IMG/VR virus record: IMGVR_UViG_3300045988_084999
Strand: one strand, 5' to 3'
Source of the DNA: a virus
DNA: 64,000 nucleotides
This document shows positions 1 through 62,789 of the stretch, piece by piece; within the stretch, counting starts at the first letter, position 1; the number at the start of each line of letters is the position of its first letter. Both the position numbers and the translations under genes were made by a program. Under the pieces are notes generated by a model. It had not been told where the DNA came from. It searched no databases and was given only the letters and a program-made list of their open reading frames with translations.

Positions 1-548
1 AGAGCAGACATATCGTCGCAACTAGTCTTGACATAAGGCTCAATTAACTTGCGGCGATAAAAAGCGGTAGTGGCAGAAGTCGAGGGGAGCCAGTTATTAG
101 CGCTCCACTGATCTTCGATAAATTGCGGAAGCCACGCAAAATTTTGATGATTAGAAAAAATTACATGATCTGGAATCCCGACGGGAAGAAGCGTACCCTC
201 TGGAACTCCCATGATAGAAATAGGTAAATAACCAAGTTTATGCAATTCTTTAAACTTGGTAAAATCCGCATAATCAGGATGGAAAGTATTTTTAATTACA
301 TGATTCCACTCCTGTTCAAGAAGCTCAACTGGCTGATCAAAGAACTCTGTCTGCCAAAATTCAAGCAGTTTCTGGATGGTATATTGATGACCAAAGACCA
401 CTGTCTTAGGGCAATTTGGATGGTGCTTATAACTGCGAGCTGTCCAAGTAGAATAAACCATAGAGGCAGACTTCGGCTGCATCTTAATAGCATGACCAAC
501 TTTGTAGTAGTCAGCGGCAAACATTGGAGCTACATCAAAGAAACTCAT
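1..548 (-). CDS. Partial nicotinamide/nicotinate phosphoribosyltransferase-family protein (NAMPT/NadV- or Namat-like). N-terminus only; the gene runs off the window start.
   Basis: Reverse-strand reading from ATG at 546-548 (MSFFDVAPMFAADYYKVGHAIKMQPK...HQNFAWLPQFIED...) is open to position 1. It is absent from the ORF track because it is incomplete. AAGGAAAGGAAG RBS upstream. The DYYK..H N-terminal motif resembles the DSYK..H motif of the NAPRTase/NAMPT family. Confidence 0.45.
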   Translation of the reverse strand, partial: MSFFDVAPMFAADYYKVGHAIKMQPKSASMVYSTWTARSYKHHPNCPKTVVFGHQYTIQKLLEFWQTEFFDQPVELLEQEWNHVIKNTFHPDYADFTKFKELHKLGYLPISIMGVPEGTLLPVGIPDHVIFSNHQNFAWLPQFIEDQWSANNWLPSTSATTAFYRRKLIEPYVKTSCDDMSA

Positions 549-605
549 AAAATCTTCCTTTCCTTATTTCTTAAATATATTATATCATATATTTTTATAA
601 AAATA

Positions 606-631
606 AAAAGCCCTCTTTATGAGGGCTTTTA
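606..631. terminator. Rho-independent terminator hairpin (AAAAAGCCCTCtttatGAGGGCTTTT)
   Basis: Perfect 9-bp GC-containing stem flanked by A and T runs, lying between two minus-strand genes. Confidence 0.5.
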
Positions 632-787
632 TCAACTTTGAAGCAAGCTAAGCAACGCTTCAATTCCTACATATTCTGGCGCAATCGCACAAGTAATAAG
701 CGGAACACTAACCATTACGCCGACTACTAATACAAACAATAATATAAATAGCAGTAAATGCCATCTACTATAATCTGCTTCCATCAT
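632..787 (-). CDS. Small hydrophobic protein (51 aa, single TM predicted by eye)
   Basis: MMEADYSRWHLLLFILLFVLVVGVMVSVPLITCAIAPEYVGIEALLSLLQS read from the reverse strand. Below the 60-aa cutoff of the ORF track. Confidence 0.3.
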   Translation of the reverse strand: MMEADYSRWHLLLFILLFVLVVGVMVSVPLITCAIAPEYVGIEALLSLLQS

Positions 788-996
788 TATATATAACACA
801 AACCACACTATACCAATAAGTAAGAGGCCAGCAAAAACTCCTATAAAGAGAGTTGAAGTCAGGTCTTTAACGGTTACATATCAACCATATTTAGCCAACC
901 ACATGGGAGCGTTTTCCATAATAGTTTGAGTTGTTACTCCAAAAAATTCTGCGAGCGACTGAAGAATAGACGCGAGAGTCTGCTCTAAAGATAGAT

Positions 997-1446
997 TCAC
1001 TTTAACAACCCTCCAACAACAGCACTTACAATCTTCATATCTACCTTACCTTTAAGCTCCATAGAAACAGATTTCATAAGCGTACCACGATTTGCTTTGA
1101 GGAGATCAATACCTGCGGTTCCCGCAATCTCTCTTACTTTTGTTTCAATTTCTGCCTTATCAGTAATAAGCTGAGGGGCGCACATCTTTACGACCTTCAT
1201 ATCCTCTTGATACTGATGTAATTTTTCAGGATAACTAGCAGGACAGGTATCAATCATTTCTTGTACTGTCTTTTGGTATTTGATAAGGGTTTCATCAACT
1301 AGCTGCTCAGTTAATTCAACTCTTCCTTTTGGAGTAATGGCTGCTTTCTGACACGCATCAATCATATCAGAAAGCACCCTCTTTGTATTCATATCTCCAT
1401 TTTTAAGAGCCATAATCTTTAACTCTTGAAGTTTCTCAATCGTCAT
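997..1446 (-). CDS. GatB/YqeY-domain protein
   Basis: 149 aa. Overall similarity to the YqeY/GatB C-terminal domain family (…KRVLSDMIDACQKAAITPKG…). Start overlaps the stop of the upstream gene by 4 nt (operon). Confidence 0.5.
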   Translation of the reverse strand: MTIEKLQELKIMALKNGDMNTKRVLSDMIDACQKAAITPKGRVELTEQLVDETLIKYQKTVQEMIDTCPASYPEKLHQYQEDMKVVKMCAPQLITDKAEIETKVREIAGTAGIDLLKANRGTLMKSVSMELKGKVDMKIVSAVVGGLLK

Positions 1447-2255
1447 CTTACAATCTCTACCTTTCCTCTAATATCCCACTCTGGCTTGAAGATGCTATCA
1501 GAAGTGAAGATTTTCTTCACAATATCTTGATTATACATATCACCCTCAATCATGGTATGTTCTGCATGGGTCACATACAGATAAACATTCTTTGCGCCAG
1601 CTTCTTTGAGGGCATTTGCTGCATGATAAAAAGTTCCACCACGAGAGCAAATATCGTCTACAATTAAGACATTTCTCTCTTTAACAATTTCCTCATTCAT
1701 TAATTGCAAACCAAGAATTTTTCCAGTAGACCAATCTCTTTTCTTAATTCCAAAAGCATAAGGAAGACTAATGGGTGGAGCAGAATATCTCTTCATCGCT
1801 CCTTCATCTGGGAAAAATAGGATAGGAATTTCTCCTTCATATTCCTCAGTTCTCTTAATAGCCTCTTTGATTTCTCCAATTGGACTAAGATCAATAACTC
1901 TATCAAGTAGAGCTAACGATACATTAGAATGAGCATCACGCACAATAACTTTATCAAAATGAAGGCTATTAATTACTTGACAGAAGTATTTTAGAGTAAA
2001 TACATCTTCAAGTTCTTGAACTCGATCCATCCTTGCATGAGGAATATATAGCATATCTAGGTTTACAGGGAAATCTTCGAAATGTCCCTTAACACAAATG
2101 AGAGTAAATAATTCTGCATCATTCTCGTACTCCCAAACAATCGTATCATAATCGAAGTAGTTGGGAGGCATGTTAATATGCAGCGTACCATCTGGAAAAT
2201 GATTTTGTTCAATTACGTCTGTCCAATGACTGCGTGTATTAATTAGACTAATCAT
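1443..2255 (-). CDS. Ribose-phosphate pyrophosphokinase (PRPP synthetase)-family protein; possibly an ADP-ribose pyrophosphokinase (Adps-like)
   Basis: 270 aa. PRPP-binding phosphoribosyltransferase motif NVLIVDDICSRGGT. Sits in an operon with the PncA-like and NAMPT-like genes. Confidence 0.65.
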   Translation of the reverse strand: MISLINTRSHWTDVIEQNHFPDGTLHINMPPNYFDYDTIVWEYENDAELFTLICVKGHFEDFPVNLDMLYIPHARMDRVQELEDVFTLKYFCQVINSLHFDKVIVRDAHSNVSLALLDRVIDLSPIGEIKEAIKRTEEYEGEIPILFFPDEGAMKRYSAPPISLPYAFGIKKRDWSTGKILGLQLMNEEIVKERNVLIVDDICSRGGTFYHAANALKEAGAKNVYLYVTHAEHTMIEGDMYNQDIVKKIFTSDSIFKPEWDIRGKVEIVR

Positions 2256-2258
2256 TTT

Positions 2259-2831
2259 TTAATCCTCCACATCAATCTGCTGGGCTTTGAAAATAGTTAG
2301 CGCTGCTTCATGCGATTCTGGAGTTACTCCTGCACACGCACTAGAATGGACGATAATTCTAGTATTTGGCATCGCCGCACGAAGCATAACTGCATTAGCC
2401 ATAACGCAAATATCGGTACAAAATCCACAGATATGAATTTCTACTTCCTCGGGATTCTTCATTTTTAGAGAATCGTATACTTCATTGACCATATCAGTAC
2501 TGCCGAAGGTATCTTTTTCATAATAGTTAAATTTGTTATTCAACGCAACCATAATTCTGGAATCCATACACCAGCCCACACTTGCTTTGATACAATGTTT
2601 AATGGGAAGTCTTTTTCCTTCCAAAGTATCAAAGTAATCATTATCATGGGTATCCATGGTACAAATAACTTCCTCCCAACAGAATCGTTTAATTAGATTA
2701 ACGATATTAGGAACCGCGGCATCCGCTGTCTTAGATCCCAAAGAACCAGTAATAAAATCATTCTGCGCATCTACAATCACAAGAAGTCTATACATATCAT
2801 AATTCCTTTCTTTTATATAAATATTATACAA
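2259..2831 (-). CDS. Isochorismatase-family hydrolase, nicotinamidase (PncA)-like
   Basis: 190 aa. LLVIVDAQNDF motif with catalytic Cys context (ICGFCTDICV) typical of nicotinamidase/isochorismatase. Confidence 0.65.
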   Translation of the reverse strand: MYNIYIKERNYDMYRLLVIVDAQNDFITGSLGSKTADAAVPNIVNLIKRFCWEEVICTMDTHDNDYFDTLEGKRLPIKHCIKASVGWCMDSRIMVALNNKFNYYEKDTFGSTDMVNEVYDSLKMKNPEEVEIHICGFCTDICVMANAVMLRAAMPNTRIIVHSSACAGVTPESHEAALTIFKAQQIDVED

Positions 2832-3042
2832 TATTTTATTATAAAATTAAAGGAGAGAATATACTCTCCTTTAATTTAAAGTTTAATTGGTTATAGAATT
2901 GCGTTTATTAGTACACAAAGAAATGTAGCTCCAATGCCAGTATAATACCCAAGATAAAACTCTTCATCAACTGGGCCAAAAATAGTTTGAACCGTATAAT
3001 AAACAAAGAGCATACCTACCGCTCCCAAAATAATTCCTAACA

Positions 3043-4314
3043 TTAGATCTCTTCCTCCTGAGCCTCTTCCATGTCAGGTACATTCTCACTTTCTTTAATA
3101 ATTCCCTCGATGACTTTAAACTCATAAGTCTTAGACTTAAAAGCTGTGAAAGCACGACGATTTACAATTCGGACAACGACGCCCTCTTTTACATGGGTGC
3201 GGCCGATCGGATCAGTGAGATCTTCGAAGTATTTGTTAATGCGCTCCTGCAAATCCTCTATGGTAGTAAATTCAAAATCCTCAATCACAGGAACTCGATT
3301 AAAGCCATGAGCATTACACCATTCAGTAATCTCGTCAGGAGTCCACTCTCTTTCTCCATTTTCAGAGGTAATACGATAAATATACATCTTGCTCTGACCA
3401 GGCTCACATCCATAAGAGAAAATAGAACGCTTACCAAACTGCTTTACAAAAGCCTTATCATTGACTTTGGTATTATCTCCGATAGGCATAATGGTGTTCT
3501 CTTCATTAGGGCCGTAATAACCCACTACTTCGTAGAAAACTTCCATTCCGGGCTCAAGATAAGGTTTCAATGCTTCATGATGTGGCATACGAAACTGGTC
3601 ATTTCCATAAAATCCCTGAGAGTTCTCTGTGACTACACAACGACGAGTTCCAAGAACATAAGCCTGCTTAGTGCGCTTTTTCATATGGAAGAGGCGACGG
3701 AAGAAACCATTAGGAAGCTAAGCATAAGTATTCATAGAGCGCTGAGAAGTTCCGTGCATTTTAAGGGTCATATTGAGAATATCTCCGGAGCGGAACTTAT
3801 CAAGATTATATGCCAATTGTTCAGTATCAGTATGCATAGAGAACTCAGGATATGTAATTCCCTCAGCCTTACGACCTTTATAAGAAGTCTTAACCTGACC
3901 AGTGGGAGTCTTGCGCTTAGGAATGTATTTACGGCAAAATTCTTTGTCGTTGATAGTGTTTACCTTATCTCCATCTTTCCAGTTCTGATTTCCGAATTTT
4001 TCATAAACTTTATCAAGAGCAATTACAACACCAGAACTCTGATTGCCGCGAAGCTTAATAGCCCTGATATGTCCATTATTTTCGATGTAGCCACCCTGAG
4101 GAGTTCCATCCTCGTTCTTGCGGAAGAGGCAAAATTCATTCCCGAACCATCTCTCAATCTCGCCATCAGTAGGAAGATAAAGAACCAACTGACCGGTTTG
4201 CATATCAGGGCCGACAATTACGCCCTCATTGAAACAATCTGCAAGATAAAGGCGGTCACTATTCTCGTCCTTCCGCACATTCTGCAACTTAGTTACAAGA
4301 CCAAAATATGCCAT
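3043..4314 (-). CDS. Putative RNA ligase / nucleotidyltransferase (Rnl1-like). One gene containing an in-frame TAG at 3718-3720.
   Basis: ORF-track fragments 3718..4314 and 3043..3684 are in the same frame and separated only by a TAG (…SMNTYA-TAG-LPNGFFRRLFHMKKRTKQ…). An LKMHGTS motif resembles motif I (KxDG) of T4 Rnl1 (TKEDGSL). Confidence 0.4.
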
Positions 4315-4333
4315 TCTATATCATTCTCCTTTC

Positions 4334-4672
4334 TTACCATTTATCATATCTGTCATGATCAGGGTCTTCTTCAATAGTAGTCACCAAATAGGAAAGCCAA
4401 CCTTCAATTTCCTCTTGATACATACCAGAAATTTCATCTTCATCTTCTTGGGTCAGTTCATCCTCAGCCAGTCCATTTTCTTCACAATACTGCTCTCGAA
4501 TGTCTTCCTCAGACAAAATCCCATGCAGTCCCTCATAAGATTGGTACTCTTCAATCGCTAGCTCTCGAGCAGCTTCCTCGGCGTCTTCTCTGGAGTCATA
4601 ATCTTCTGTGCAATGATATTGATACCCATCAAATCCTCCGCTCAGGCCTGCGTATAAATTATATTTAGCCAT
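4334..4672 (-). CDS. Highly acidic hypothetical protein (possible DNA-mimic type)
   Basis: 112 aa, very D/E rich. No recognisable domain. Confidence 0.35.
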   Translation of the reverse strand: MAKYNLYAGLSGGFDGYQYHCTEDYDSREDAEEAARELAIEEYQSYEGLHGILSEEDIREQYCEENGLAEDELTQEDEDEISGMYQEEIEGWLSYLVTTIEEDPDHDRYDKW

Positions 4673-5489
4673 TTACTCTCCTCCAACCCATTCCATAGTA
4701 GTGGTTACCACCCTTGATAGCTTTCTCGATGTTTTTTATCGTATTTTCAAGATTGAAATGCTCATAGGTGTCAGACTCGCATTTATTCTCTTTAAGCCAC
4801 AGTGCAGCAGCTTCAACACTAGTAAAAGTATTTGTAGCTCGCTTTTTAGAATTAACAATGCAAATAGTTCCAGCAGGATAACCAGCCTTATTCCATTTAG
4901 GAGTAAAAACACTTTCTTTATTAGTTGCTTTCCTCTTCCAATCAGCAAACATTTCATCAAGTGTCTCTCTTGATGTGTTACTCATAAAATCATATACTTC
5001 CTTTAATAGAACTGCATCATCTAAGGAGTTGTGATTTTGTTCAGCAGAAGAATTAAATCTTCTGAGGGTATTCAAAAGACTGTGATTACATTCCCATTTC
5101 AGCTCTTTTTTGCACATCTTGGCATAATCTCGATAATTGCCACAAATATATCCCAACGCCATTTTTGCTTTAAGCGCAGTTGCATGACGAGAAGTATGTC
5201 GAATAAAATCTCCATCAGAATTTCCCCATACAAGAAATTCTGGTGCATCATCTAGATTTTCAAACAACCAATCATAGAACTTAGAGAATACGGCATCGGC
5301 AGACATAGCACTATCAATCATCTCTGCTGTGATACCAGTAAGATTAGTAATGAAAGGAGTAATTTTACCTTTCTTTGGGGCTACGAGTGCATAAAAAGTC
5401 TGACCATCCTCTCTAATACATCCGATAGAAATAATTTCTTGCGAAAATTGTGTAGCCTCAAAGTCGATAAAATATTTCATTACTAACAA
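4665..5489 (-). CDS. DEDDh 3'-5' exonuclease (DnaQ-like) with C-terminal extension
   Basis: Exo I motif YFIDFEATQ and exo III motif HNSLDDA. Confidence 0.6.
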   Translation of the reverse strand: MLVMKYFIDFEATQFSQEIISIGCIREDGQTFYALVAPKKGKITPFITNLTGITAEMIDSAMSADAVFSKFYDWLFENLDDAPEFLVWGNSDGDFIRHTSRHATALKAKMALGYICGNYRDYAKMCKKELKWECNHSLLNTLRRFNSSAEQNHNSLDDAVLLKEVYDFMSNTSRETLDEMFADWKRKATNKESVFTPKWNKAGYPAGTICIVNSKKRATNTFTSVEAAALWLKENKCESDTYEHFNLENTIKNIEKAIKGGNHYYGMGWRRVNG

Positions 5490-5742
5490 TCTCCTCTCTT
5501 AATAATTTTGAAACTCCATTGTTACAGGAAGAACTTTGTGTTTCTGCTCAAATTGGTTCCAAATTACCTCTTCTCTTGACACTATTACCTTCATAGGTTG
5601 TGATTAAGAAGCAATTTATTGAACAGTTTGAATAAATTTAATCTCTATGAATGGTCTCGGCGCCTGCATTCTCCATTGTCGAATAATTTGATTATCTAGA
5701 TAGATACTAAAAGTAACATCAAAAATATCTTCATTCATGACA

Positions 5743-6021
5743 TTAATAAACATCATACCCCTGCCTTCTCATTACAGCCAATGATTTATATACCATTTTA
5801 CCCATGCTCTTACTTTTTGCTTTTGTTACATTTCCCATTTCAATTAAATGAGAAAGAATACGAGCCATCTTCTGAGGGCTTAGCCCCGTTAATGTAATTG
5901 ATCTTTGCTGAATTTGTTCAATAGTAAGAGCCTCTTCACTATCAGCAAGAATTACCATTACTTCTCCTTGAAACAAGGCGTTCTGATCTTTTGTATATTT
6001 TGAAGTTCTGCGACCTGGCAT
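5743..6021 (-). CDS. Small putative DNA-binding (winged-helix-like) protein, 92 aa
   Basis: Start moved to the ATG at 6019-6021, which has an AAGGAGG RBS. The ORF-track version (133 aa) reads through the upstream small gene. Confidence 0.35.
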   Translation of the reverse strand: MPGRRTSKYTKDQNALFQGEVMVILADSEEALTIEQIQQRSITLTGLSPQKMARILSHLIEMGNVTKAKSKSMGKMVYKSLAVMRRQGYDVY

Positions 6022-6022
6022 A

Positions 6023-6193
6023 TTACTGTACCTCCTTATAGGAAATAACCCTAATATTTTCAAGTTTTTCAGTATAGGAAGTCCTGCCATTATAGATAAC
6101 TGCAATCTTATTCTTGCGGTCAATGCCAATAATCTTACCATCACGACCGCTAAGAGTCTTCACGATTGTTCCTTCACATACATAAGGCATCAT
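6023..6193 (-). CDS. Small protein (56 aa), KOW-like
   Basis: MMPYVCEGTIVKTLSGRDGKIIGIDRKNKIAVIYNGRTSYTEKLENIRVISYKEVQ. Stop immediately precedes the RBS of the next gene. Confidence 0.3.
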   Translation of the reverse strand: MMPYVCEGTIVKTLSGRDGKIIGIDRKNKIAVIYNGRTSYTEKLENIRVISYKEVQ

Positions 6194-6269
6194 ATAAATT
6201 ACTTCCTTTCTTAACTTTCTATATATATTATATCATATAAAAATAAAAAAATAAAGAAGATGATAATGG

Positions 6270-7028
6270 TTAGTTATCATCTTCTTTAGTCCAACGATTG
6301 TAGATATCTTCTAAGTTTTCTATGTTATAATATAGCATTTGCACGCCGGGTTGAACTACTCTGTCATCATGAAAGTGGCCAAAAAGATATGTATTAAAAG
6401 AAATCATATCTTTAAATTTATCAAGCCAAAGCTCCATAGTATTGTCTACTGTATTTTGATCCAACCCTTGAAGAAATAGGTCAAATGGCTGCCAAGAATA
6501 TGGACAAGTATGAGCAAAAATAAAATCAAAATGTTTGCCCTTAAACCTTTCTGTAATATCAGCCATTTCCTCTGGAGTTAGCTGTTCATCCTTAAACCAT
6601 CCAGTCCACTTGGCATCTTGCGGAAAATGAGATAAACGATACCACTTATCTACACTATACGCACCACCAATTACAAGAGTAGGGTGCATATTAATGAGAT
6701 AAGCATGACCATCCATTAAGTATCTAATGTTAGGGTATTCAGACTCGTAGTAAACTGTACCTTCTACGTTTTCATCATATATCTGATGCATAGTAGGAAT
6801 ATTCTCTGGTCGCTCTTCATGATTTCCTCTTACGCAATAGATAAAATAGCCAGTCTTATTAATTACCTGCTTATTCTTTGCGTCCGTCTTATTGAGATAA
6901 AAATTTATGCCTACATCGCCGAGAATAATAATTGCTGTCTCCTCTGGAACATAACAATTTTCTATATGAAATAATCGTTCCATTACTCTACCGTGGGTAT
7001 CACCAGTAACCAACCAATTCTTAATCAT
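6270..7028 (-). CDS. Calcineurin-like metallophosphoesterase
   Basis: GDTHG, GDVG and GNHE motifs. Confidence 0.65.
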   Translation of the reverse strand: MIKNWLVTGDTHGRVMERLFHIENCYVPEETAIIILGDVGINFYLNKTDAKNKQVINKTGYFIYCVRGNHEERPENIPTMHQIYDENVEGTVYYESEYPNIRYLMDGHAYLINMHPTLVIGGAYSVDKWYRLSHFPQDAKWTGWFKDEQLTPEEMADITERFKGKHFDFIFAHTCPYSWQPFDLFLQGLDQNTVDNTMELWLDKFKDMISFNTYLFGHFHDDRVVQPGVQMLYYNIENLEDIYNRWTKEDDN

Positions 7029-7824
7029 CTTCGCTCAACTCCCTCTCCACGGCAGTTTTCATAATTTCATACTGCACGTCATCAAGAAGTGCATTTACTT
7101 CTGGATCTTCCTTATTAGGGTAGATAGAATAGGCATATTCCGCCATTTCTTCCACATGAGCCTTAGCTTTATCCGCCATAGTTCTGGCTTCCGCAAGTGA
7201 ATATTTTCCCATCTTGATTTCGATTAGCTCTTGTTTCATAGGGCCGGGGTCTAAACAACTTTCATAGCTTTCTCCTGCGATATATCTACTAAGATAATCT
7301 TCTACTCGGACAAGATGGTGAAGCTGTTTAGGATCGTAGCCATACTTCTTTAAAATTTCTACTTTACTAGGATACTCATGTTCCATTGCATGATATTTTT
7401 CAAGAGCAATTCCTTTCATACTTTGAACAGAACGATAAGGATTAAAATGAGTAATTGCCTCTCTTGATTCTAACAAGCGATTCCACTGTTTTTCATAGAT
7501 GGGATTAATAACAGCAAACTCTGTATAAAGAATTTCAAGGAAGTTTAAGTTTTGTTTGCGGAATGTCTGAATATAGAGGCGGATATCTTTCCAGTCAGTA
7601 TGTTCTTCATTAGCTCTCACATGAGTTGTACTAACTGGCTTGCGATTCATAGCAATGTCTTTAAAGCTAGGAACTACAATAAGTTTCGTATCTACATCTG
7701 ATAGTGGAGTATCAAGTCCGTAGTTTTGACTACCCTGTAGAAAGATACCTACAATTTGATCTTTATGAAAGTGAGTAAGAGCTTCGTCAAGATGTTCTTG
7801 CACTCTTTGCATAGTAGATAACAC
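7021..7824 (-). CDS. Minimal nucleotidyltransferase (Pol-beta superfamily)
   Basis: GSQNYGLDTPLSDVDT, i.e. the GS-x10-DxD signature. Confidence 0.55.
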   Translation of the reverse strand: MLSTMQRVQEHLDEALTHFHKDQIVGIFLQGSQNYGLDTPLSDVDTKLIVVPSFKDIAMNRKPVSTTHVRANEEHTDWKDIRLYIQTFRKQNLNFLEILYTEFAVINPIYEKQWNRLLESREAITHFNPYRSVQSMKGIALEKYHAMEHEYPSKVEILKKYGYDPKQLHHLVRVEDYLSRYIAGESYESCLDPGPMKQELIEIKMGKYSLAEARTMADKAKAHVEEMAEYAYSIYPNKEDPEVNALLDDVQYEIMKTAVERELSEDD

Positions 7825-7836
7825 CTTTACTCCTCC

Positions 7837-8253
7837 TTAATTCCAATTATTGAAAATTTTCTTTTGTTCTTTTAAGGCACGTTCAATTTCTCTATCAGCT
7901 TGTTTTTTCAGATATTCTATATCTTTTTGGCAATCTTCTAATATCCAAATTAAAGTATCTCGTCTTCCTTTCCTTTCTTCATTAATCCTAGAAAAGATTC
8001 TATTTAATTGAAAATAGCAGAAAGCCATAAAAGTTAATTTAATTTTGTGATTGCCATAATATAAATGCTTTATATCATCAACCCAACGAACTTCAGTATA
8101 GCTCCATCTTAAAGGATTGACTTTGTATATCTGACGAAAGATTTTTAACTTTAATTTTGTTTCTCCTTGATAGTTAAAGCATAGCCACCAAATAAAAAGA
8201 AAACCAAACCCGCAGATAATTCCAAGCAAGAACAATATTTTTAATAATGTCAT
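7837..8253 (-). CDS. Membrane-anchored hypothetical protein
   Basis: Hydrophobic N-terminal helix (LLKILFLLGIICGFGFLFIWWL). Confidence 0.35.
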   Translation of the reverse strand: MTLLKILFLLGIICGFGFLFIWWLCFNYQGETKLKLKIFRQIYKVNPLRWSYTEVRWVDDIKHLYYGNHKIKLTFMAFCYFQLNRIFSRINEERKGRRDTLIWILEDCQKDIEYLKKQADREIERALKEQKKIFNNWN

Positions 8254-8486
8254 AGAGGCTCCACACCCAATCTCTTTCCATTAGAACTAACAATGATGTG
8301 TTTTCTACAGGCTGGACATCTAACTGTTGAATAGTTGTGATATTCTCCGAAGCATTCTTCACTGTTGGCCATTTCATCTTTTGCAGTAAAACCAATAATA
8401 CTATCACAATTAGGACATCTTACTTTATATTTTTTCATATTATCTTCAATTATCCAAGCCATTATCAATAGCCTCCATTTCTTCAA
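8250..8486 (-). CDS. Zinc-ribbon protein
   Basis: CPNC…CPAC pairs. Confidence 0.35.
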   Translation of the reverse strand: MKKWRLLIMAWIIEDNMKKYKVRCPNCDSIIGFTAKDEMANSEECFGEYHNYSTVRCPACRKHIIVSSNGKRLGVEPL

Positions 8487-8757
8487 TATATCTATCAGGA
8501 ATAGGATGTGCAGTTACAAGAGTTTTTGTTTTTCCTCTCCATATATAAATACATCCTCTATAAATTCTAACCGAACAGTCATTTGTTTGATTTTTCTTAT
8601 TTTGAAGATAAGAAAAGAATTTAGGATACTTCTGAAAATTATTGAGAGTCTTTCCAGAAATGCGGGCTTGCTTAGCTAAACGTTTCGCCTCAGCAAAAGT
8701 GCTAACTCCATTAGTTCTCTCAACAATTCTCTGCTTACTATGCTTCGTAATTACCAT
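8446..8757 (-). CDS. Hypothetical protein (DUF4258-like N-terminus)
   Basis: VITKHSKQRIVERTNG motif. Confidence 0.3.
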   Translation of the reverse strand: MVITKHSKQRIVERTNGVSTFAEAKRLAKQARISGKTLNNFQKYPKFFSYLQNKKNQTNDCSVRIYRGCIYIWRGKTKTLVTAHPIPDRYIEEMEAIDNGLDN

Positions 8758-8852
8758 CTGCCAACTTCCTTTCCTTTATTTTATATATATATTATATCAT
8801 ATAAAAATAAAAAAATAAAGGAGAACGATTAACTCGTTCTCCTTTATTAAGA

Positions 8853-41881: not shown

Positions 41882-42051
41882 AACCTCTTTTCTTATTTAT
41901 ATAAATATATTACCATATTTTATTAAGATACGCAAGTAAATCTTATGGATTATAACGAACCGTCATAATTTCTCACGGATGCGGGAATTTTTTAGGCAGA
42001 GAAATTGGCAATCCCGCGGTAATTTTAATAAAATGGTCATAGAGGTATTTT

Positions 42052-42135
42052 TGTCCAAAATTTTCTAACGAGTGTCCAAAAATTTCTAATAAAGTGTCCG
42101 ATTTTTTCTAATGACTTGTCCAAAATTTTCTAATG
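42052..42135 (+). promoter_or_regulatory. Four direct repeats of TGTCCAAAATTTTCTAA (operator-like) upstream of a plus-strand RHH-regulator gene
   Basis: Copies at about 42052, 42074, 42099 and 42117, spaced about 22 nt apart. Confidence 0.45.
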
Positions 42136-42244
42136 GATTGATTGTTCTATTGTTTATAATTTTAGAAAAAAGTTTAACAAATTTTAGGACAAAACCAGAA
42201 AATTATGTTATAATAAAAGTAAAGAATAGTAGAGAGGTGATTTT

Positions 42245-42388
42245 ATGAATTATTCCACTGTTTCTGTTAGATTAACAGAGGAAGAGAAGAAAGATTTGGA
42301 AGTCTTTGCTAAGAGTTGTGATTTAACAATGTCTTAGGTAATTAGAAAGGCTGTTAAAGAATATATTGAGAAAAATAAAATAGACTAA
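42245..42388 (+). CDS. Ribbon-helix-helix (CopG/Arc-like) DNA-binding protein with one in-frame TAG
   Basis: MNYSTVSVRLTEEEKKDLEVFAKSCDLTMS-TAG-VIRKAVKEYIEKNKID. RBS AGAGAGGTG. Confidence 0.4.
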
Positions 42389-42403
42389 AGGAGATTAAAC
42401 TAA

Positions 42404-42625
42404 ATGACTAATGATACTTATAAAGTTTTTACGGTAAAGTTAGCACGCAAACTTTGTGATCTTGGTTTTATTATTGTTGGAACTGTTCCTAATGTTTAGA
42501 AACCTTGGTTAAATGTTTATCTTTTTGAAGATAGTTAGGATTTAAGGGATGCAGTTTAGAAGTATAAAGGGATAAGTTCGCTATTGGAGGATGATTGCCA
42601 TGGCAGACAAAAGAAGAAGTCCTAA
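42404..42625 (+). CDS. Hypothetical small protein with 3 in-frame TAGs
   Basis: MTNDTYKVFTVKLARKLCDLGFIIVGTVPNV-TAG-KPWLNVYLFEDS-TAG-DLRDAV-TAG-KYKG…. Confidence 0.3.
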
Positions 42626-42989
42626 TTAGCGAACTATTAATCATATTCATAAGGAACCATGTGATACTAATAATATATATGCTAGGATTAATAAGGAAGC
42701 GTTATTTGCGGCCCGTAGAGAGTTGACAGATGGAGAGTTCTCTTTGTGGATATTTTTTGCTAGTCAATCTGAGAGGTTAACTGATTATGATTTTGGGCCT
42801 ACTATTATAGAAAAAGAGCTTGGTATAAAGAGAGCGAAATATACAAGTGCAGTAGATGGATTGGTAAAAAAGGGATATTTAGTTCCAGTTGAGAGAAAAG
42901 GATATTACGATTTTTACGAGATTCCTATTGATAGTGACGACGATAAGTATAATTATATAGCTCCAGATGGAGAGAAATTTTCTTTTTAA
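42600..42989 (+). CDS. Putative replication-initiator/winged-helix protein adjacent to iterons (contains TAG)
   Basis: In frame with ORF 42723..42989 (…ARRELTDGEFSLWIFFASQSERLTDYDFGPTIIEKELGIKRAKYTSAVDGLVKKGYLVP…). Functional call by context only. Confidence 0.3.
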
Positions 42990-42994
42990 TCGTA

Positions 42995-43260
42995 TTTCTG
43001 CAATACTATGAAAAATTTCATGTATTTCTGAGAATACTATGATTTCATCATATTGTGAAAAAGCTATGAAATTTTCATGTATTTGTTGGAAAGCGATGAA
43101 ATTGTTTTCATGGTATTCTGATAATACTATGAAATTAAATAAAAAGGATTTTCATAGCTTTCCAACAATACCATGTCATAGTATTCTGACAATACCATGA
43201 AAGTAAATAAAAATCCATTTCATGGTATTCTGACAATACAACAAATATAACATATATTAG
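42995..43260. repeat. Iteron-like repeat block (AATACTATGAAA and CATGGTATTCTGACAATAC motifs, each recurring several times); candidate replication origin
   Basis: The motifs ttcatgtatttctgagaatactatga, catggtattctgataatactatgaaa, catagtattctgacaataccatgaaa and catggtattctgacaatac all fall within about 270 nt. Confidence 0.45.
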
Positions 43261-43332
43261 ATAACAGAGTTAAGATAACAGTCGCGACTTTTTTATGTAT
43301 TTGTGAAAAAGCGATGAGTAGGAGGATTAAGG

Positions 43333-43723
43333 CATGGAAGTATTTAAACCGATTAAGGTAGAAAATTATCAATTCATGAAGAATGGATTAAATTAGTATG
43401 AACCAGTATTAGTTTACTTTAAAGATGATGAAGAAGAAGGCAAGGTATATTTTGTAAAGAATAAATTTGATGATAAGTTAGAAGAATGGATGGAAGAGAA
43501 TTTAAAGGTAGAAGGAAGAAGTAGAGTTATAGTAGATAAGTATCATAATAGGATAAGTATAGATGTTTTTACTCAAGATTTAGAGGACTCTATAACCGAT
43601 TTAGAAAAACGAATTGAAAAGTTAGAAGAAGGTTTTAGAGAAATCGAATTGAAAAATCGAGATAAAAATGGAGAGATATATGATTTGGTTGGAAGGATAA
43701 GAGAGATAAATAGAACTGGATAG
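43333..43723 (+). CDS. Hypothetical protein with one in-frame TAG
   Basis: MEVFKPIKVENYQFMKNGLN-TAG-YEPVLVYFKDD… is in frame with ORF 43490..43723. Confidence 0.35.
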
Positions 43724-43803
43724 AGATGTAGATTATCTTTATATGAAGATTGAAAGAAATTAAAGGAAATTAAAAGAAGTTTATAAAATGATGGAGTTGG
43801 GTG

Positions 43804-45122
43804 CCGATCGGGTCTAGGTACGAACCATCACAACACTCGTCACAACGATCGTAAACCTAGCCTTCCGCGATTATAATATATATAAAAAAGGAGAGAAGCT
43901 ACAATACTTCTCTCTCCTTTAATCTTTTTCCTCTTGTTACTTTAAATGCTTCAAAAACTCCATAATACTATCTTCATCAGACTTAGTATTACCCTTAACC
44001 TGAGGCACACTCTTTGCGAGAGCATCAGAAATAGAGTCAACAGCAATGTCAATTACTTCATCAAGACTCTTTGCATTGACTACTCGAGCGGAAGTCTTAG
44101 CAGTTACAGTCATAGCCTGCATAAACTGCTTAATATCATTTGCTGTCCACTTAGGATTGCTCTTGCTATAAACCAGCGCAGCTACACGACCAACGTCATC
44201 CTCAGTGAGAGACAAATCATCAACATTGCCATAAAAAGTAGACTCAATCTCATCCAGAAGAATATCTCGTTCATGGTCTGCGGCGTTAGCCTCGGAGATT
44301 CTATTCATAGCATCAGTAAATGCCTTTGCAATCTCCTCCTGAGTAGAACCATTCTGCATTGCATCACGAATCATAATCTCATAACTATTCATAATAAGTT
44401 CTTTTAGTTAGAAAAAGCGTTATGATGCTTCTTAAACTAAAATCCTCCTTTTCTTTATCTTATGTATATATTATATTATATTTTTTATATATTGTCGAAC
44501 CGATCGGGTCTAGATAAAAAGATCGCTTTAACGGAATCCCGCGGAAAAGATTTTTCCTTTTCAAATAGTTAGCAACATCTTTACTATTGTTTGCTGTATC
44601 TTTAATGGTTTTAATTCTGTGAATATCAAGAAATTTTGAGAAAAACGAGGCATTTTTTGCTTATTTTTAAGTAAATTTGTTAGAAAAACGCGCATTTTTG
44701 CAAGATTTTAGAGGTTTTTTGTTATATTTTGCGATAACAAGAGGTAAAAGATCGCGGGCCGATCGGTTTATCTAGCTAAAATCTCTATTTTTGAGCTATT
44801 TTTATCATAAAATCGTGTTAAACCGATCGGTTCCGCGAAAGAAATCTCTGGTCGTATTTGTTTTTCATAGCTATATCTTTGCTATTGCTAGTTGTATTTT
44901 AGAAAGTTTTGGTACTGTGAATACTTGACAATTTTAAGATTTTTATTATAAAAAATTGGACGAGAGAGCCAATATTGCTGGACCGATCGGAACTAGATAA
45001 AGAAAGAAGTAAAGTAGGGCCGATCGGTGTTTGAAAGATGGCGTTATGAATTTTGGGAAAATTGCTATGAAGTTGCGTTATGGCCAAGTTGCTATGAAAA
45101 TTTTGCGCTATGGTCCGATCGG
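43804..45122. repeat. Array of seven copies of the 8-bp GC palindrome CCGATCGG (several extended as CCGATCGG-n-TCTAGATAAA) in the largest non-coding stretch
   Basis: Copies at 43804, 44500, 44759, 44823, 44983, 45020 and 45115. The genome is about 33% GC, so this is strongly non-random. Confidence 0.5.
43937..44392 (-). CDS. Hypothetical protein
   Basis: 151 aa, with promoter motif upstream. Confidence 0.35.
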   Translation of the reverse strand: MNSYEIMIRDAMQNGSTQEEIAKAFTDAMNRISEANAADHERDILLDEIESTFYGNVDDLSLTEDDVGRVAALVYSKSNPKWTANDIKQFMQAMTVTAKTSARVVNAKSLDEVIDIAVDSISDALAKSVPQVKGNTKSDEDSIMEFLKHLK

Positions 45123-57995: not shown

Positions 57996-58416
57996 CTGGA
58001 TTAAGCCTCCAAGGGTCACTAGTATCGTAATCAATCATTTCATAGAAAGATATTTCATTTTCATTAACTTCTAATACCTAGTGAGGAATACACTATACTT
58101 CATAGTCAAAATCTTTATTAATATGGTAAGAAGTATATATATGAATAGCAATAGGTCTAGGATCATTAACTCCCTAAATATCCCATAAACTTATTGCTTT
58201 ATTTTGGAAGATTTCCTAAGCATACTATGGAGATATAGCAATACTGATTATTAAGATATTAAAATAATACTATGCTTTTTTCGGTAAATCTAAATATGGT
58301 TCGTCAAAGAACATTGGCAAACAAATCTCCTATCTTATTTTTTATAATTATATTATAACATTTTTAAATAAATTAATCAAATAAGATTTGACAATCTAGT
58401 TTTTTTTTGTTATTAT

Positions 58417-59487
58417 ATGAGTATAAAAGGAGATGACAGTATGATAAAATTAGATTATACTATTGAGTCTCCAGAAGAACGGAAGGCGCTTGTCGAAAAA
58501 ATAATCGCAGAAAATCCGAACCTTAGTTCGAGTTATTTAGAAATATTAGCAGATTATTTAGTTCTATGTATGGAAAAGCAAGAGAAGAAAGAAAAGAATA
58601 TATTAACAGATAATAGAATGGCTACTGTTAATAAAAGAGAATGTTCTTTCGAAGGGCTTGCGTCATAGATGGAAAATGGCGAGGATGGCATTTATGGTTT
58701 AATGTCAGAAAATAAAAATGTTATATTTTAGCCAAAGATTTCTATTACACAGAAAGATTTAGATACTATACCATGTTTAAAATAGTTGAGAGAAACCATT
58801 AATGTCTGGGAGGGCGCTTTAAAACGCGCTGCTGGGACAAAATAGGCATATATGATGAAAAAAGCATTAATAGAGATGCGAAAAGATTAGTATATCATTA
58901 AGCAAGCATATTAGAAACCTATTATACCATGTAAATTAACGAGATCCGTAAGAACTCATATTCCTCTTGATGATTAGAGTTATCTTAATGGACAGGAGGT
59001 AGTAGTAAAGGGTATTTCGCTAATGGACGCCAATGTTGTTTCTGCTATTTTATGCAATTATTCAAAATTAAAAGAAGATAGTTATGATTAGTTTGAGGGA
59101 GATACATGGTATTTAATTCAATCATTTGAAGAAATATGTGATAAAGCTCTCAAAGACTTTCCAATCTATTTACGAATTGTTGAACTCAAAATTGATAAAA
59201 AGTAGAATAACGAAATATAGGAAATATTAAAAAATGAGTTTGGTAAAACATATAGCGTTGAATATATTTCTAGCCTATGGAGAAATAAGATTCCTAAACT
59301 CATTGCGGAAGAAGCTTTAGAAGATTTTTTACGTTGGTAGTATAAACAAAAAGGATACCCAATGAAAAAATGTTCTAAGTGTGGGCAATTAAAGCCAGCC
59401 CATAATCAATTCTTTTCAAAGAATAAGACAAGTAAGGATAATTTGTATAGTATCTGTAAGCGCTGTCGCAATAAGAAAAGAGGTTGA
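58417..59487 (+). CDS. Late-operon hypothetical protein with C-terminal zinc ribbon; about 12 in-frame TAGs; ends at TGA
   Basis: The frame of ORF 58417..58668 is continuous through the TAGs to …CSKCGQLKPAHNQFFSKNKTSKDNLYSICKRCRNKKRG-TGA. Sigma-A-like promoter (TTGACA…) at about 58391. Confidence 0.4.
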
Positions 59488-59493
59488 TTATAA

Positions 59494-60663
59494 ATGAGCC
59501 ATTATTGTAAAAAATGTGGTAAAACTATGGATGATAAATAGTTTTATACATCAAAAAATTTAGAGAAGTATCCTCCAGATGGAAAGATGGATATTTGTAA
59601 AAAGTGTCTTACTATGCACGTAGATAACTGGGATCCAGAAACTTATAAATGGATTTTATAGGAGATTGACGTTCCATATATTAAAGAAGAATGGAATGGT
59701 TTATTGGAGAAATATGGAAAAGATCCAAAGAAAGTTACTGGATTAACTATTATTGGACGCTATTTATCTAAAATGAAATTAAAGCAATGGAATAAATACA
59801 CTTGGGCAGATACAGAAACGCTAGAGAAAGATTCCATTGATAAAAAAGTTCTTAATATGAAGGCTCAAGGATTTACAGAAGATGAAATTCAAGAGCAGTT
59901 GTCTATTGATAGAACTCCTCCAAAACCAAAAGAATTAGAGGATGTTTAGGCCCCTGTAGGAACTCCAGAATATGAAGATCCAGAGGAAGATGATGATTTT
60001 GGTGATTAGCTAACCGAAGAAGATAAATTAGTATTACGTCTTAAATGGGGCCGCGGATATTCTTGGGAAGAAAGAGTAAGAATGGAGCAGCTTTATAATG
60101 ATATGATGAGTTCTTATGATATTCAAGGAGCAGGTCATAAAGATACTCTTATTATGGTATGTAAAGCTAGTTTAAAAGCAAATTAGTTAATTGATGCTGG
60201 AGATATTGATGGCTTTTAGAAGATGCAAAAAGCCTATGATAGTTTAATGAAAAGCGGCAAATTTACGGCTGCTTAGAACAAAGGCGAATCCGGTGAATTT
60301 GTAGATTCAATAGGTGAATTAGTAGCCCTTTGTGAAAGAGAGGGTTTTATTCCTAGATATTATACGGAAGGGCCACAAGATAAAGTAGATAGAACTCTTT
60401 AGGATTTACAGCAATATACTCATACTCTAGTTACAGAGGAAATGAATCTTGGTAATATGATCGAAGCTTCGTTAAGAGAAATAGTTAAAGACAGAGAACG
60501 CGAGGCAAATATTGATGTTGAAGATAGCGATGAGGATGAAGATTTATTTAATTACGAGCATCCAGAATTAACAGAAGAAGATTATCAAGAGTATGAAGAT
60601 ATGAAAGAGTCGGAAAGAGACAAAGATGAGGAAATGTTAAATAATATATTAAAGGAGGTTTAA
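59494..60663 (+). CDS. Hypothetical late protein (possible terminase small subunit or packaging accessory) with multiple in-frame TAGs
   Basis: MSHYCKKCGKTMDDK-TAG-FYTSKNLEKY… is in frame with ORF-track pieces 59704..59949 and 60442..60663. Confidence 0.35.
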
Positions 60664-60666
60664 TAT

Positions 60667-62412
60667 ATGGCATTAAAAGATTTATTAAACCTTTCAAATA
60701 ATAATAAGAAAATTGGTCTTTCCGAAGAAAGAGTTCGTGCGATAATTCCAGCAGCAAGATAGTATATAGCTTTTTGGAGAGAATATCCAGATATGTTTAT
60801 TGACTTTTTGTAGACCGGCGGAGACGAGACAAGAAAAAAAGAAATTAATTTTTATTTTTATTAGAGAGTTTTCTTGCGGGCGGCCATGAGATATAAGTAT
60901 GTATACATGGTATTTCCCCGTGCTTATTCTAAGTCATTCTTATCAGTAATGGTACTTATGTGTAGATGTATATTATATCCTGGATGTAAGCTATTCATTA
61001 CTTCTGGCGGAAAAGAATAGGCAGCAGGTATTGCAAAAGAAAAAGTCTAGGAAATTTGTAATGCGATTCCCGCACTTTAGAGAGAGATTGATTGGCGAAG
61101 AGGTAAGACTTAGGAAGGAAAAGATTATTGTAAGTATATCTTCAAAAATGGATCTTATTTTGACAACGTCGCGGCTAGAGAATCTTCTCGTGGTAAGCGT
61201 AGACATGGAGGATTAATTGAGGAGTGCGTTGGTGTAGATGGAGATATTTTAAATGAAGTTTTAATCCCTCTAATGAACGTTGATAGAAGATGTTTAGACG
61301 GATCTGTTCATGAAGAAGAAACACTTAATAAATCTTAGATTTATGTAACTACTGCGGGGTGGAAAAACACATTCCCATATAATAAGTTGATTACTTTGCT
61401 AGTGCGCATGATACTAGAACCCGAAAAGAGTATTGTAATGGGCGGAACATGGAGAATTCCTGTGCTAGTGGGATTGCAATCCCGCAACTTTGTATAGGAG
61501 TTAAAACAAGATGGTACATTTAATGAAGCATCATTTGATAGAGAGTATGAATCTAAATGGAGTGGCACCGTAGAAGATGCCTTCTTTAATGGTGATGCTT
61601 TTGATAGAAGTAGAAAATTGCTTTAGCCTGAATATGAATCTTCCGGGCGCTCTTCTGCTCAAGCATATTATGTTCTTTCTGTTGATGTAGGAAGAAAGAA
61701 ATGTCAATCTGTTGTATGTGTATTTAAAGTAACCCCTCAGTCTCAAGGACCAGCGATTAAGTCTCTTGTTAATATATATACTATGGATGATGAACATTTT
61801 GAAGATTAGGCAATTAAGCTAAAAAGATTATATTATGATTATAAAGCTAAAATTATTGTTATTGACGGTAATGGACTTGGTGCTGGATTGATGGATTATA
61901 TGGTTAAACCACAAATAGTGCCAGATACCAATGAAGTTTTTCCTGATTTTGGTGTAGCTAATGATGAAGATGGAGAATACAAACGATTTAGAACAGATAA
62001 TACAGAATATGATGCTATTTATGAAATTAAGGCAAATGCGCCAATTAATACCGAAGCCCATAGCAATGTTTAGACATAGTTGCGGGCTGGAAAGTTAAGA
62101 TTTTTAATCGACGAAAAAGTTGCTAGAAATAAATTACTTGGTACCAAGAAAGGTCAAGCCATGAAACCAGAAGAGCGGGCAGAATATTTAAAACCATTCA
62201 CTTTAACTTCTATATTAAGAGAAGAAATGCTAAATTTGCGAGAAGAAAATGAGGGTGTAAATATTATTTTAAAACAGGCAAATAAGTCTGTGCCCAAAGA
62301 TAAATTCTCTGCGCTTGAATATGGATTATATTATATTAAATAGGAAGAAGATAGTAAACGCAAGCGTAAAAGTAGAAGATTTTCAGATTTTATGTTTATG
62401 AGTGAGGTGTGA
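60667..62412 (+). CDS. terL: Terminase large subunit with about 14 in-frame TAGs; ends at TGA
   Basis: A single frame was verified codon-by-codon from ATG 60667. It has an ATPase Walker A-like motif VFPRAYSKSF, a nuclease-domain motif KIIVIDGNGLGAGLMDYM, and the DNTEYDAIYEIKANAP… segment. ORF-track pieces 61888..62073 and 62080..62343 lie in this frame. Confidence 0.65.
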
Positions 62413-62415
62413 GAT

Positions 62416-62772
62416 ATGAAGGCCAGTCGTGGAGAAATTAAAATTCATGAGATATTAGAGCAAAATGGCATGAACTTTAAAGAAGAGTATGAGTTTCCTG
62501 GGCTGAAAGCACCAAGTGGTAGGCCACTTCGTTTTGATTTTGCTGTTTTTGATGATGATGGAAATCTTGATTTTTTAATTGAGTATCAGGGTAAATAGCA
62601 TTATTAGGCTGTTAGTAAATTTGGTGGAAATAGAGGATTATACCAATAGAAATATAATGATAATCAAAAGCGTAGATTTTGTGCATTAAAAGGTATTACC
62701 CTCATTGAAGTTCCCTATACGGAGGAAAATATCATCTCTTATGATTATTTAATGAGTAAAGCTGGATATTAA
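62416..62772 (+). CDS. Small PD-(D/E)xK-like (Vsr/DUF559-like) nuclease with 3 in-frame TAGs
   Basis: …RFDFAVFDDDGNLDFLIEYQGK-TAG-HY… is in frame with ORF 62416..62598. Confidence 0.35.
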
Positions 62773-62789
62773 CACCTGGAGGTGATATT

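Follow-up and report, generated by a model that had tools for sequence, protein, structure and literature searches.

When a phage carries, in a single cluster, a relative of phosphoribosyl pyrophosphate (PRPP) synthetase (Prs) and a relative of nicotinamide phosphoribosyltransferase (NAMPT), do these enzymes serve generic salvage of nicotinamide adenine dinucleotide (NAD+), or do they rebuild the cofactor after a host defense has consumed it? The question is posed by positions 1-2831 of the IMG/VR virus record IMGVR_UViG_3300045988_084999, analyzed here as a stretch of 64,000 nucleotides (hereafter, the window). Bacterial immunity against phages often ends in the depletion of NAD+, and the searchable literature describes three phage counter-pathways, the NAD+ reconstitution pathways NARP1, NARP2, and NARP3. 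NARP1 consists of the enzymes Adps and Namat (Osterman et al., 2024, bioRxiv 10.1101/2024.02.11.579819) and overcomes NAD+-depleting defenses, namely type I Thoeris, DSR1/2, SIR2-HerA, and SEFIR; structures of Namat are available as 9w5x and 9w5w (PMC12774641). On balance, and from sequence comparison, we favor the view that the module described here is a variant of NARP1-type NAD+ reconstitution, comprising four enzymes and proceeding via deamidated intermediates, in a gut phage that recodes the stop codon TAG.

Coding in this part of the window lies on the minus strand, with five genes in the following transcription order. The first encodes a PncA-type nicotinamidase of the isochorismatase fold (2259..2795, 178 aa; Pfam PF00857 Isochorismatase, E 7e-20); gene callers choose the ATG at 2795 as its start, and an alternative TTG at 2831 would give 190 aa. 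It is followed by the Adps-like member of the Prs family (1443..2255, 270 aa; phrog_619, E 1.7e-66) and by a YqeY/GatB-tail domain protein (997..1446, 149 aa; Pfam YqeY PF09424, E 7e-9, together with phrog_1460), the gene for which overlaps the Adps-like stop codon by 4 nt. A small predicted membrane open reading frame (ORF) comes next, and last is the gene for the NAMPT-like, or Namat-like, transferase (1..548; phrog_448, E 2.9e-43), of which 182 codons are seen before it exits the window at base 1. The profile matches of the cluster genes are strong, and chance ORFs are excluded. The initial annotation of this stretch had named Prs-like, NAMPT-like, nicotinamidase-like, and YqeY genes, and all four are found where it placed them; it had also described the Prs-like and NAMPT-like genes as adjacent, which they are not, as the YqeY gene and the 90-codon membrane ORF (904..632) lie between them.

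The same annotation had recognized that the NAMPT-like gene is cut off by the window edge. Searched by exact sequence, the Prs-like protein is found on six metagenome contigs (54-147 kb), one of which, L003 (ENA ERZ28597870 scaffold_53, 147,429 bp), is 100% identical to window positions 1-12000, and the downstream DNA of L003 is for that reason read here as the continuation of the window. The full Namat-like gene occupies L003 11708-13297 and encodes 529 aa. Overlapping it by 4 nt, and beyond the window edge, is a cluster member that the first reading of the window could not include, a gene for NadE (L003 13294-14019, 241 aa).

Is the Prs-like protein, then, a housekeeping Prs or an Adps? A hidden Markov model (HMM) was built from 75 Adps proteins of canonical, NARP1-linked Adps-Namat loci. 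The phage protein scores 241 bits on this model, within the range of its own members (184-305), whereas true Prs enzymes from E. coli, B. subtilis, S. solfataricus, and M. jannaschii score 121-147 bits. It falls under every NCBIfam Prs cut-off, the best model being TIGR01251 with 80 bits against a cut-off of 113, and equivalog Prs models return 35-77 bits against cut-offs of 296-536. Canonical Adps proteins share 20 positions with conservation of 90% or more, and the phage protein matches all 20, including K171 (equivalent to K194 of E. coli Prs), and six of these positions (L66, P72, S110, G178, F209, L226) distinguish Adps from Prs. A Namat homologue lies within 10 genes of it, with two small genes between. 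By these measures the Prs-like protein belongs to the Adps clade, apart from housekeeping Prs, an identity that the NCBIfam cut-offs, the HMM score, and the 20 shared residues rule out. The Adps of SpβL1 phosphorylates ADP-ribose (ADPR) and gives no product from ribose-5-phosphate and ATP in a Prs assay.

The 529-aa protein gives a parallel answer. Its best solved relatives are 9w5x and 9w5w (E 3.5e-95, compared with 3e-39 for human NAMPT), and the chain numbering and residues of 9w5x agree with the SpβL1 Namat structures described in PMC12774641. A Namat signature, G-x-Ar-T-Y-Q-Ar-x-TRD (Ar, aromatic), forms the adenine clamp within the SCH motif and is common to both of the pocket types distinguished below. 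In the phage protein it reads GAYTYQYVTRD (on L003, outside the window), with Ala in place of Ser at position 2 and with Y426 and Y430 as the aromatic residues. Two NARP2-type Nampts, from a KVP40-like Vibrio phage and from phage Lw1, have GMGGGLLQ..RD in place of the clamp. Among 115 of the nearest homologues, the clamp aromatics are kept in 92% (position 3) and 97% (position 7). The residues through which SpβL1 Namat contacts NAD+ (roles as given in PMC12774641) are identical at 16 of 20 positions, and the contacts to AMP and adenine are all retained: D361, A362, F392 (here Tyr), Y396, T398, and D400. In the SCL loop, which in Namat supplies a stacking Arg, Lys, or Tyr but is variable and could be compared at the level of alignment, K41 (inside the window) aligns with R40 and is flanked by Y40 and H42. 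Because SpβL1 Namat is its closest solved relative and the adenine-clamp signature is kept, the protein is, by sequence, of NARP1 type; the same two features rule out a canonical NadV of generic salvage. The pair of genes thus represents the Adps and Namat families of NARP1, and neither the housekeeping Prs nor the canonical NadV that would have pointed to ordinary salvage is what the two proteins turn out to be.

Where the phage enzyme departs from SpβL1 Namat is in the pocket for nicotinamide. Of the seven pocket residues (F189, R192, D215, A242, R306, D13', and Y15'), five are conserved, D13 and Y15 among them, and D215 and A242 are changed: Asp215 corresponds to Ala216 of the phage protein and Ala242 to Ser243 (both on L003, outside the window). 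These two, together with the replacement of S391 by Ala at the phosphate of nicotinamide mononucleotide (NMN), are the non-conservative changes among the contacts. Asp215 hydrogen-bonds nicotinamide in SpβL1 Namat, and the D215A mutant suffers an 8.1-fold loss of NAD+ output (PMC12774641). The equivalent residue of human NAMPT, Asp219, sets substrate specificity, and D219S is listed as switching substrate affinity (with reference to Khan et al., 2006). The pair Ala216/Ser243 is present in all 120 nearest homologue clusters wherever the motif is readable.

The two companion enzymes carry the hallmarks of their families. The best relatives of the PncA-type protein in the PDB are all nicotinamidases (5zn8/6a8l, 1ilw, 3pl1, 3o90), and its catalytic triad D9/K88/C130 and metal site D48/H50/H67 align with D10/K94/C133 and D52/H54/H71 of P. 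horikoshii PncA; the nicotinamidase that had been proposed here is thus present by Pfam match, structural relatives, and intact catalytic and metal residues. As it scores under the E. coli-type NCBIfam equivalog cut-off, it is a divergent member of the PncA family. NadE scores 157 bits on TIGR00552 (cut-off 63.65), has the motif ISGGKDST of an SGGxDS PP-loop, and consists of a single domain, without a glutaminase domain; by family criteria it is an NH3-dependent NAD+ synthetase.

If the altered pocket and the two companion enzymes belong together, they should travel together. Namat-family loci with flanks of 8-10 kb were gathered from IMG/VR, GenBank phages, metagenome contigs, and GTDB genomes, and scored by the residue pair 216/243 and by the presence of homologues of Adps, PncA, and NadE; counts refer to loci whose flanks each reach 3 kb or more. 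Among 98 loci with Asp or Glu at 216 (62 viral and 36 bacterial), none has PncA and none has NadE. This group includes Paenibacillus foliorum, the NARP1 of which has been validated by experiment. The 52 loci with Ala or Ser at 216 and Ser243 present the opposite picture, 49 having PncA and 40 having NadE, and in the viral loci of this type both genes are present in 19 of 19. In phages and bacteria alike, PncA and NadE are diagnostic companions of the Ala/Ser-type enzyme. Linkage of the four genes persists to Namat identities as low as 31%, despite changes of order (Adps, Namat, NadE, PncA in MT835544) and inserted genes, such as an RNA ligase in locus L100 and, between the Namat-like gene and NadE of locus L101, a gene with a NADAR domain (9675-10499). 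The NADAR domain family is linked to ADP-ribose processing. Ser takes the place of Ala at 216 in two loci (L130 and L172), again with PncA and NadE, and this is the same substitution as in human NAMPT D219S. Among the Ala-type proteins, a long clade has an insertion of ~35 residues after the catalytic His, and a short clade holds the Clostridium proteins and MT835544.

Taken as a pathway, these enzymes would operate as follows. PncA would convert the nicotinamide released by NADase defense effectors into nicotinate and NH3, and the Adps-like kinase would use ATP to convert ADP-ribose into its pyrophosphate (ADPR-PP). The Ala/Ser-type Namat would then join nicotinate and ADPR-PP directly to form nicotinic acid adenine dinucleotide (NaAD), with release of pyrophosphate (PPi), and NadE would amidate NaAD with ATP and NH3 to give NAD+. 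The PncA and NadE steps are predicted from family membership and intact catalytic motifs, and the Adps step from membership in the clade. For the NaAD-forming step, it is the pocket residues, the conservation of the clamp, and the gene linkage that point to the proposed chemistry, while an anti-defense purpose would follow by analogy with canonical NARP1. A deamidated dinucleotide is implied because NadE would otherwise have nothing to act on. Direct formation of NaAD fits, too, in that no adenylyltransferase gene was found in or beside the module: Pfam listings of the window, the L003 flanks, and the Ala-type loci, which cover part of the 147-kb genome, show no PF01467/Nmnat protein. In its widest form, the proposal is that Ala/Ser-type Namats catalyze an undescribed reaction, nicotinate + ADPR-PP → NaAD + PPi, within a four-enzyme pathway that recycles the ammonia of PncA, that is native to Clostridia, often beside a Nudix/NrtR-like gene, and that several gut phage lineages have captured to rebuild NAD+ where nicotinamide is scarce or quickly deamidated. 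We would give this wider proposal an even chance of being correct.

Several points weigh against this assignment. Substrate and product are deduced from two pocket residues and from gene linkage, and the diagnostic residues, like NadE, sit outside the 64-kb window and are read from an identical public contig. Human NAMPT D219A is reported to be inactive rather than switched, so Ala at this position is by itself no proof of nicotinate use. The association may reflect few independent evolutionary events, the transitions perhaps numbering just one, because the Ala/Ser-type proteins form one or two clades; joint monophyly of the Ala-type received 51 of 100 neighbor-joining bootstrap replicates across 108 Namat and Nampt sequences. 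Adjacent NadE is lacking in 11 bacterial Ala-type loci, and adjacent PncA in 3. NadE also occurs in phages without Namat nearby, and since four fecal phage contigs have NadE homologues without Namat, Adps, or PncA, NadE alone is no marker of the module. The tblastn search with E. coli NadD, which gave no match in the window or in any locus, was of low sensitivity. Finally, Namat can use PRPP in vitro, which makes a PRPP-based route conceivable.

Such a route would be ordinary Preiss-Handler salvage: PncA would make nicotinate, the Prs-like protein would make PRPP, the NAMPT-like protein, acting as a nicotinate phosphoribosyltransferase, would make nicotinic acid mononucleotide (NaMN), host NadD would make NaAD, and phage NadE would finish. 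In a sub-variant, NadE would act as an NMN synthetase on NaMN, followed by an adenylyltransferase. NadE acting as an NMN synthetase is known in Francisella. This scheme accounts naturally for PncA and NadE, which are classic enzymes of the pathway, and it draws on a NadD that the hosts possess; Nampt, like Namat, accepts PRPP in vitro, and the nearest NCBIfam model of the 529-aa protein is named nicotinate phosphoribosyltransferase. We nevertheless consider it unlikely. It needs a Prs, yet the Prs-like protein lies in the Adps score range and under all Prs cut-offs, and SpβL1 Adps, as noted above, gives no product in a Prs assay. An adenine clamp would be pointless for PRPP, yet it is conserved in 92-97% of homologues and absent from true Nampts. 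Furthermore, a NadD/NMNAT gene was found beside the module in none of ~50 loci, whereas NadE does. In outline, the deamidated pathway favored here shares with Preiss-Handler salvage (PncA, PncB, NadD, NadE) its first and last steps and its deamidated intermediates, but its sole phosphoribosyltransferase is of Namat type, no PncB-family enzyme is present and no NadD was found, and the Adps/Namat pair would replace both.

A second possibility is that the cluster encodes canonical NARP1, in which nicotinamide and ADPR-PP give NAD+, that PncA and NadE are independent auxiliaries feeding host salvage, and that the Ala and Ser residues are neutral. Adps and Namat signatures are indeed present, and NARP1 operons are known to gain accessory genes, such as the Macro-domain Adpp (15% of NARP1 phages) and RyDEP. 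Neutrality is hard to square, however, with the 8.1-fold cost of D215A to SpβL1 Namat, or with the distribution of the residue, Asp or Glu being found in 98 of 98 loci free of PncA and NadE and in 0 of 52 loci linked to them. The canonical reaction is further disfavored because a nicotinamidase expressed from the same operon would compete for, and destroy, the nicotinamide that is the pathway's own substrate. We regard this reading as improbable. The initial annotation's NARP1 interpretation therefore stands in its Adps/Namat core, and the second half of its mechanism, the joining of nicotinamide to ADPR-PP to yield NAD+, is probably wrong, given the Asp215Ala and Ala242Ser replacements and the linkage to NadE and PncA.

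Quite improbable, in our view, is that these are host-derived auxiliary metabolic genes for housekeeping ADPR and pyridine recycling, raising NAD+ to supply the DNA and RNA transactions of the phage regardless of defense, without an anti-defense function, for although the same operon occurs in Clostridium and Oscillospiraceae chromosomes (once by ribosomal-protein genes and once by a Pfam-confirmed NrtR) and the phage neighborhood is one of nucleotide and RNA-repair metabolism, this proposal concerns purpose rather than chemistry and is compatible with a deamidated NARP1, ADPR in quantity comes mainly from NADase activity, and canonical and bacterial NARP1 both neutralize NAD+-depleting systems experimentally.

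How does the four-enzyme module relate to what has been described? With NARP1 it shares a phage-borne cluster that pairs a Prs homologue of the Adps clade with a transferase of Namat type, the SCH signature, all AMP/adenine contacts, the catalytic Arg (R339, equivalent to R306), and the catalytic His. It differs in the Asp215 to Ala and Ala242 to Ser replacements, in the linked nicotinamidase and NH3-dependent NAD synthetase, in the ~35-residue insertion of the long clade, in the YqeY gene and membrane ORF that here separate Adps from Namat, and in its predicted product, NaAD instead of NAD+. Precedent for accessory enzymes that widen the usable input comes from NARP1-AP and RyDEP-extended NARP1 (bioRxiv 10.64898/2026.01.28.702374 and 10.64898/2026.05.28.727677). 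There, the accessories (a Macro-domain ADPR-1P phosphatase and a RyR-domain glycosidase) serve the ADPR side and feed canonical Adps and Namat, whereas here the accessories are on the pyridine side and Namat itself is altered. The Pfam listing of the cluster holds neither a Macro-domain Adpp nor a RyR/RyDEP accessory. A second metallophosphoesterase, ApaH/PP-lambda-like, lies directly after NadE and is a candidate to act on ADPR derivatives by analogy with Adpp in NARP1-AP.

NARP2 (Nampt and Nmnat, from Vibrio phage KVP40) likewise has a NAMPT-family transferase and rebuilds NAD+ in infected cells, but its Nampts have GMGGGLLQ rather than the aromatic clamp, are not linked to Adps, and need Nmnat, which a search of limited sensitivity did not find here; membership in NARP2 is ruled out by the Namat-type clamp and by the lack of a detectable NadD or Nmnat in the window or flanks. 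NARP3, composed of PnuC and NadR, is unrelated to this cluster. One related contig with this four-gene module (L102; GCA_001577415.1, LSQA01000021.1) does carry a NARP3-like pair at 2533-4342, an AAA_28 (NadR-kinase-like) protein adjoining a PnuC-family transporter.

The closest deposited genome is that of phAss-1 (OQ749652; PMC10607447), of the "Caudoviricetes code 15 clade," with a Namat-like protein 68.6% identical to that described here. Both phages have the PncA, Adps-like, Namat-like, and NadE set, both recode TAG (with a tRNA-Sup-CTA in phAss-1), and both come from the human gut. They differ in that phAss-1 lacks YqeY and spaces its genes otherwise, and it gives no megablast match; megablast of window positions 1-6000 against GenBank phages returned no match at all, so that relatives are found at the protein level only. 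The phAss-1 paper predicts Clostridia as hosts and lists the nicotinamidase, without treating the NAD genes as a pathway (PMC10607447). In PMC open access and bioRxiv to mid-2026, with subscription-only articles outside that scope, we found no publication joining NARP1 with a nicotinamidase or NadE, and the only one to bring NARP1 together with nicotinic acid is the paper on NARP3 (PnuC and NadR). Nor do the preprints on NARP1, aRES/Adpp, and RyDEP, or the paper on the Namat structure, mention nicotinate, PncA, or NadE. What is known is the set of enzyme families and the logic of NARP1; the architecture of four genes, the retuned pocket, and the reaction predicted to form NaAD appear to be undescribed.

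Were the proposal correct, it would add a new enzymatic reaction, the making of NaAD directly from ADPR-PP, and would show one or two residue changes to be enough to retune the pocket of Namat. The motif pair TAT/PS[LT]EH versus TDT/PATEH would then serve as a marker separating the two pathway types, a distinction presumably missed by current sequence-based annotation. The finding also carries NAD+ reconstitution into uncultured phages of gut Firmicutes that recode stop codons.

The bacterial loci raise the further question of what such modules do in a chromosome. In many Clostridium species, a Nudix/NrtR-like gene forms a compact operon with Adps, PncA, Ala-type Namat, and NadE (for example L127, 5727-10228; GTDB loci L108-L172), and in a metagenome-assembled genome from the Oscillospiraceae the four genes stand beside ribosomal-protein genes. 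On the deamidated reading, the Clostridium operons, hitherto a Nudix/NrtR-like gene with Prs-like, PncA, NadV-like, and NadE neighbors, would be explained as ADP-ribose recycling, and bacterial NARP1-like modules may in general be regulated pathways of this kind. The winged helix of NrtR is confirmed by Pfam in locus L098. At other loci, "NrtR" denotes a tblastn match to the L098 protein; those in Asp-type loci, which cover just ~200 residues with 28-34% identity, may represent ordinary Nudix genes. In Paenibacillus and Bacteroidota, a Nudix-family gene accompanies Adps and an Asp-type Namat without PncA or NadE.

Returning to the phage cluster, the small predicted membrane ORF (632..904, minus strand) is known from its gene call and translation, which has hydrophobic stretches and one in-frame TAG in its 90 codons. 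Between it and the NAMPT-like gene, a consensus scan places a terminator-like hairpin (630..606, with a 10-bp stem and a T tail) and a promoter-like site (601..574), which together occupy 574..630 on the minus strand and may divide transcription of the cluster between two units. The evidence from such a scan is weak, with 4 terminator-like sites found against 2.0 +/- 1.3 expected. Neither a riboswitch nor any other RNA family turned up in an Rfam scan of positions 1-3400, where weak matches at 573-657 reflect only the hairpin.

That the phage reassigns TAG is read from three features of its sequence. The RNA ligase gene at 4314..3043 (minus strand) has an in-frame TAG at 3718-3720 and is called as one product of 423 aa; positions 14529-14604 encode a tRNA whose anticodon is CUA; and each of the plus-strand ORFs at 58-64 kb (for example 58372-62412) contains 8-14 in-frame TAGs. 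None occurs in the NAD enzyme genes, which fits their early expression, before suppression starts. A total of 31 tRNA genes (ARAGORN), covering most amino acids, lie within ~20 kb at 13470-32996 on the minus strand, an unusually large number for a phage of ~147 kb.

The YqeY gene, translationally coupled to Adps, is absent from the other Ala-type modules examined, and a tblastn search with YqeY against GenBank phages gave only 3 matches, all to short fecal contigs; as far as these comparisons go, it is restricted to this phage lineage. Gln-tRNA is made in many Firmicutes through GatCAB transamidation, and the tail of GatB binds tRNA. That YqeY might help to charge the TAG suppressor tRNA instead of serving NAD metabolism is pure speculation.

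RNA-repair-like genes flank the NAD module on both sides, at 3043-7824 of the window and at 14100-16835 of L003. Besides the ApaH/PP-lambda-like metallophosphoesterase, its members are an RNA ligase, an RNase T-like exonuclease, a metallophosphoesterase, an RlaP-like nucleotidyltransferase, a Thg1-like protein, a PNK/PSTK-like kinase, and a third phosphoesterase; immediately downstream of NadE on L003 are the metallophosphoesterase already mentioned, the Thg1-like protein, and the PNK-like kinase. Further into the window, the minus strand encodes an 813-aa protein (8853-11294) matching the major-vault-protein shoulder domain PF11978 and, adjacent to it, a 506-aa protein (11706-13226) matching DUF2828/DUF7788; both are odd finds in a phage, and both are conserved across related contigs. 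At 42001-44000 and 58001-64000, the GC skew turns from negative to positive (+0.2 to +0.3) and G+C content falls to ~30%, a shift that falls together with genes on the plus strand that are heavily TAG-recoded, and the border of a divergent late-gene module probably lies there.

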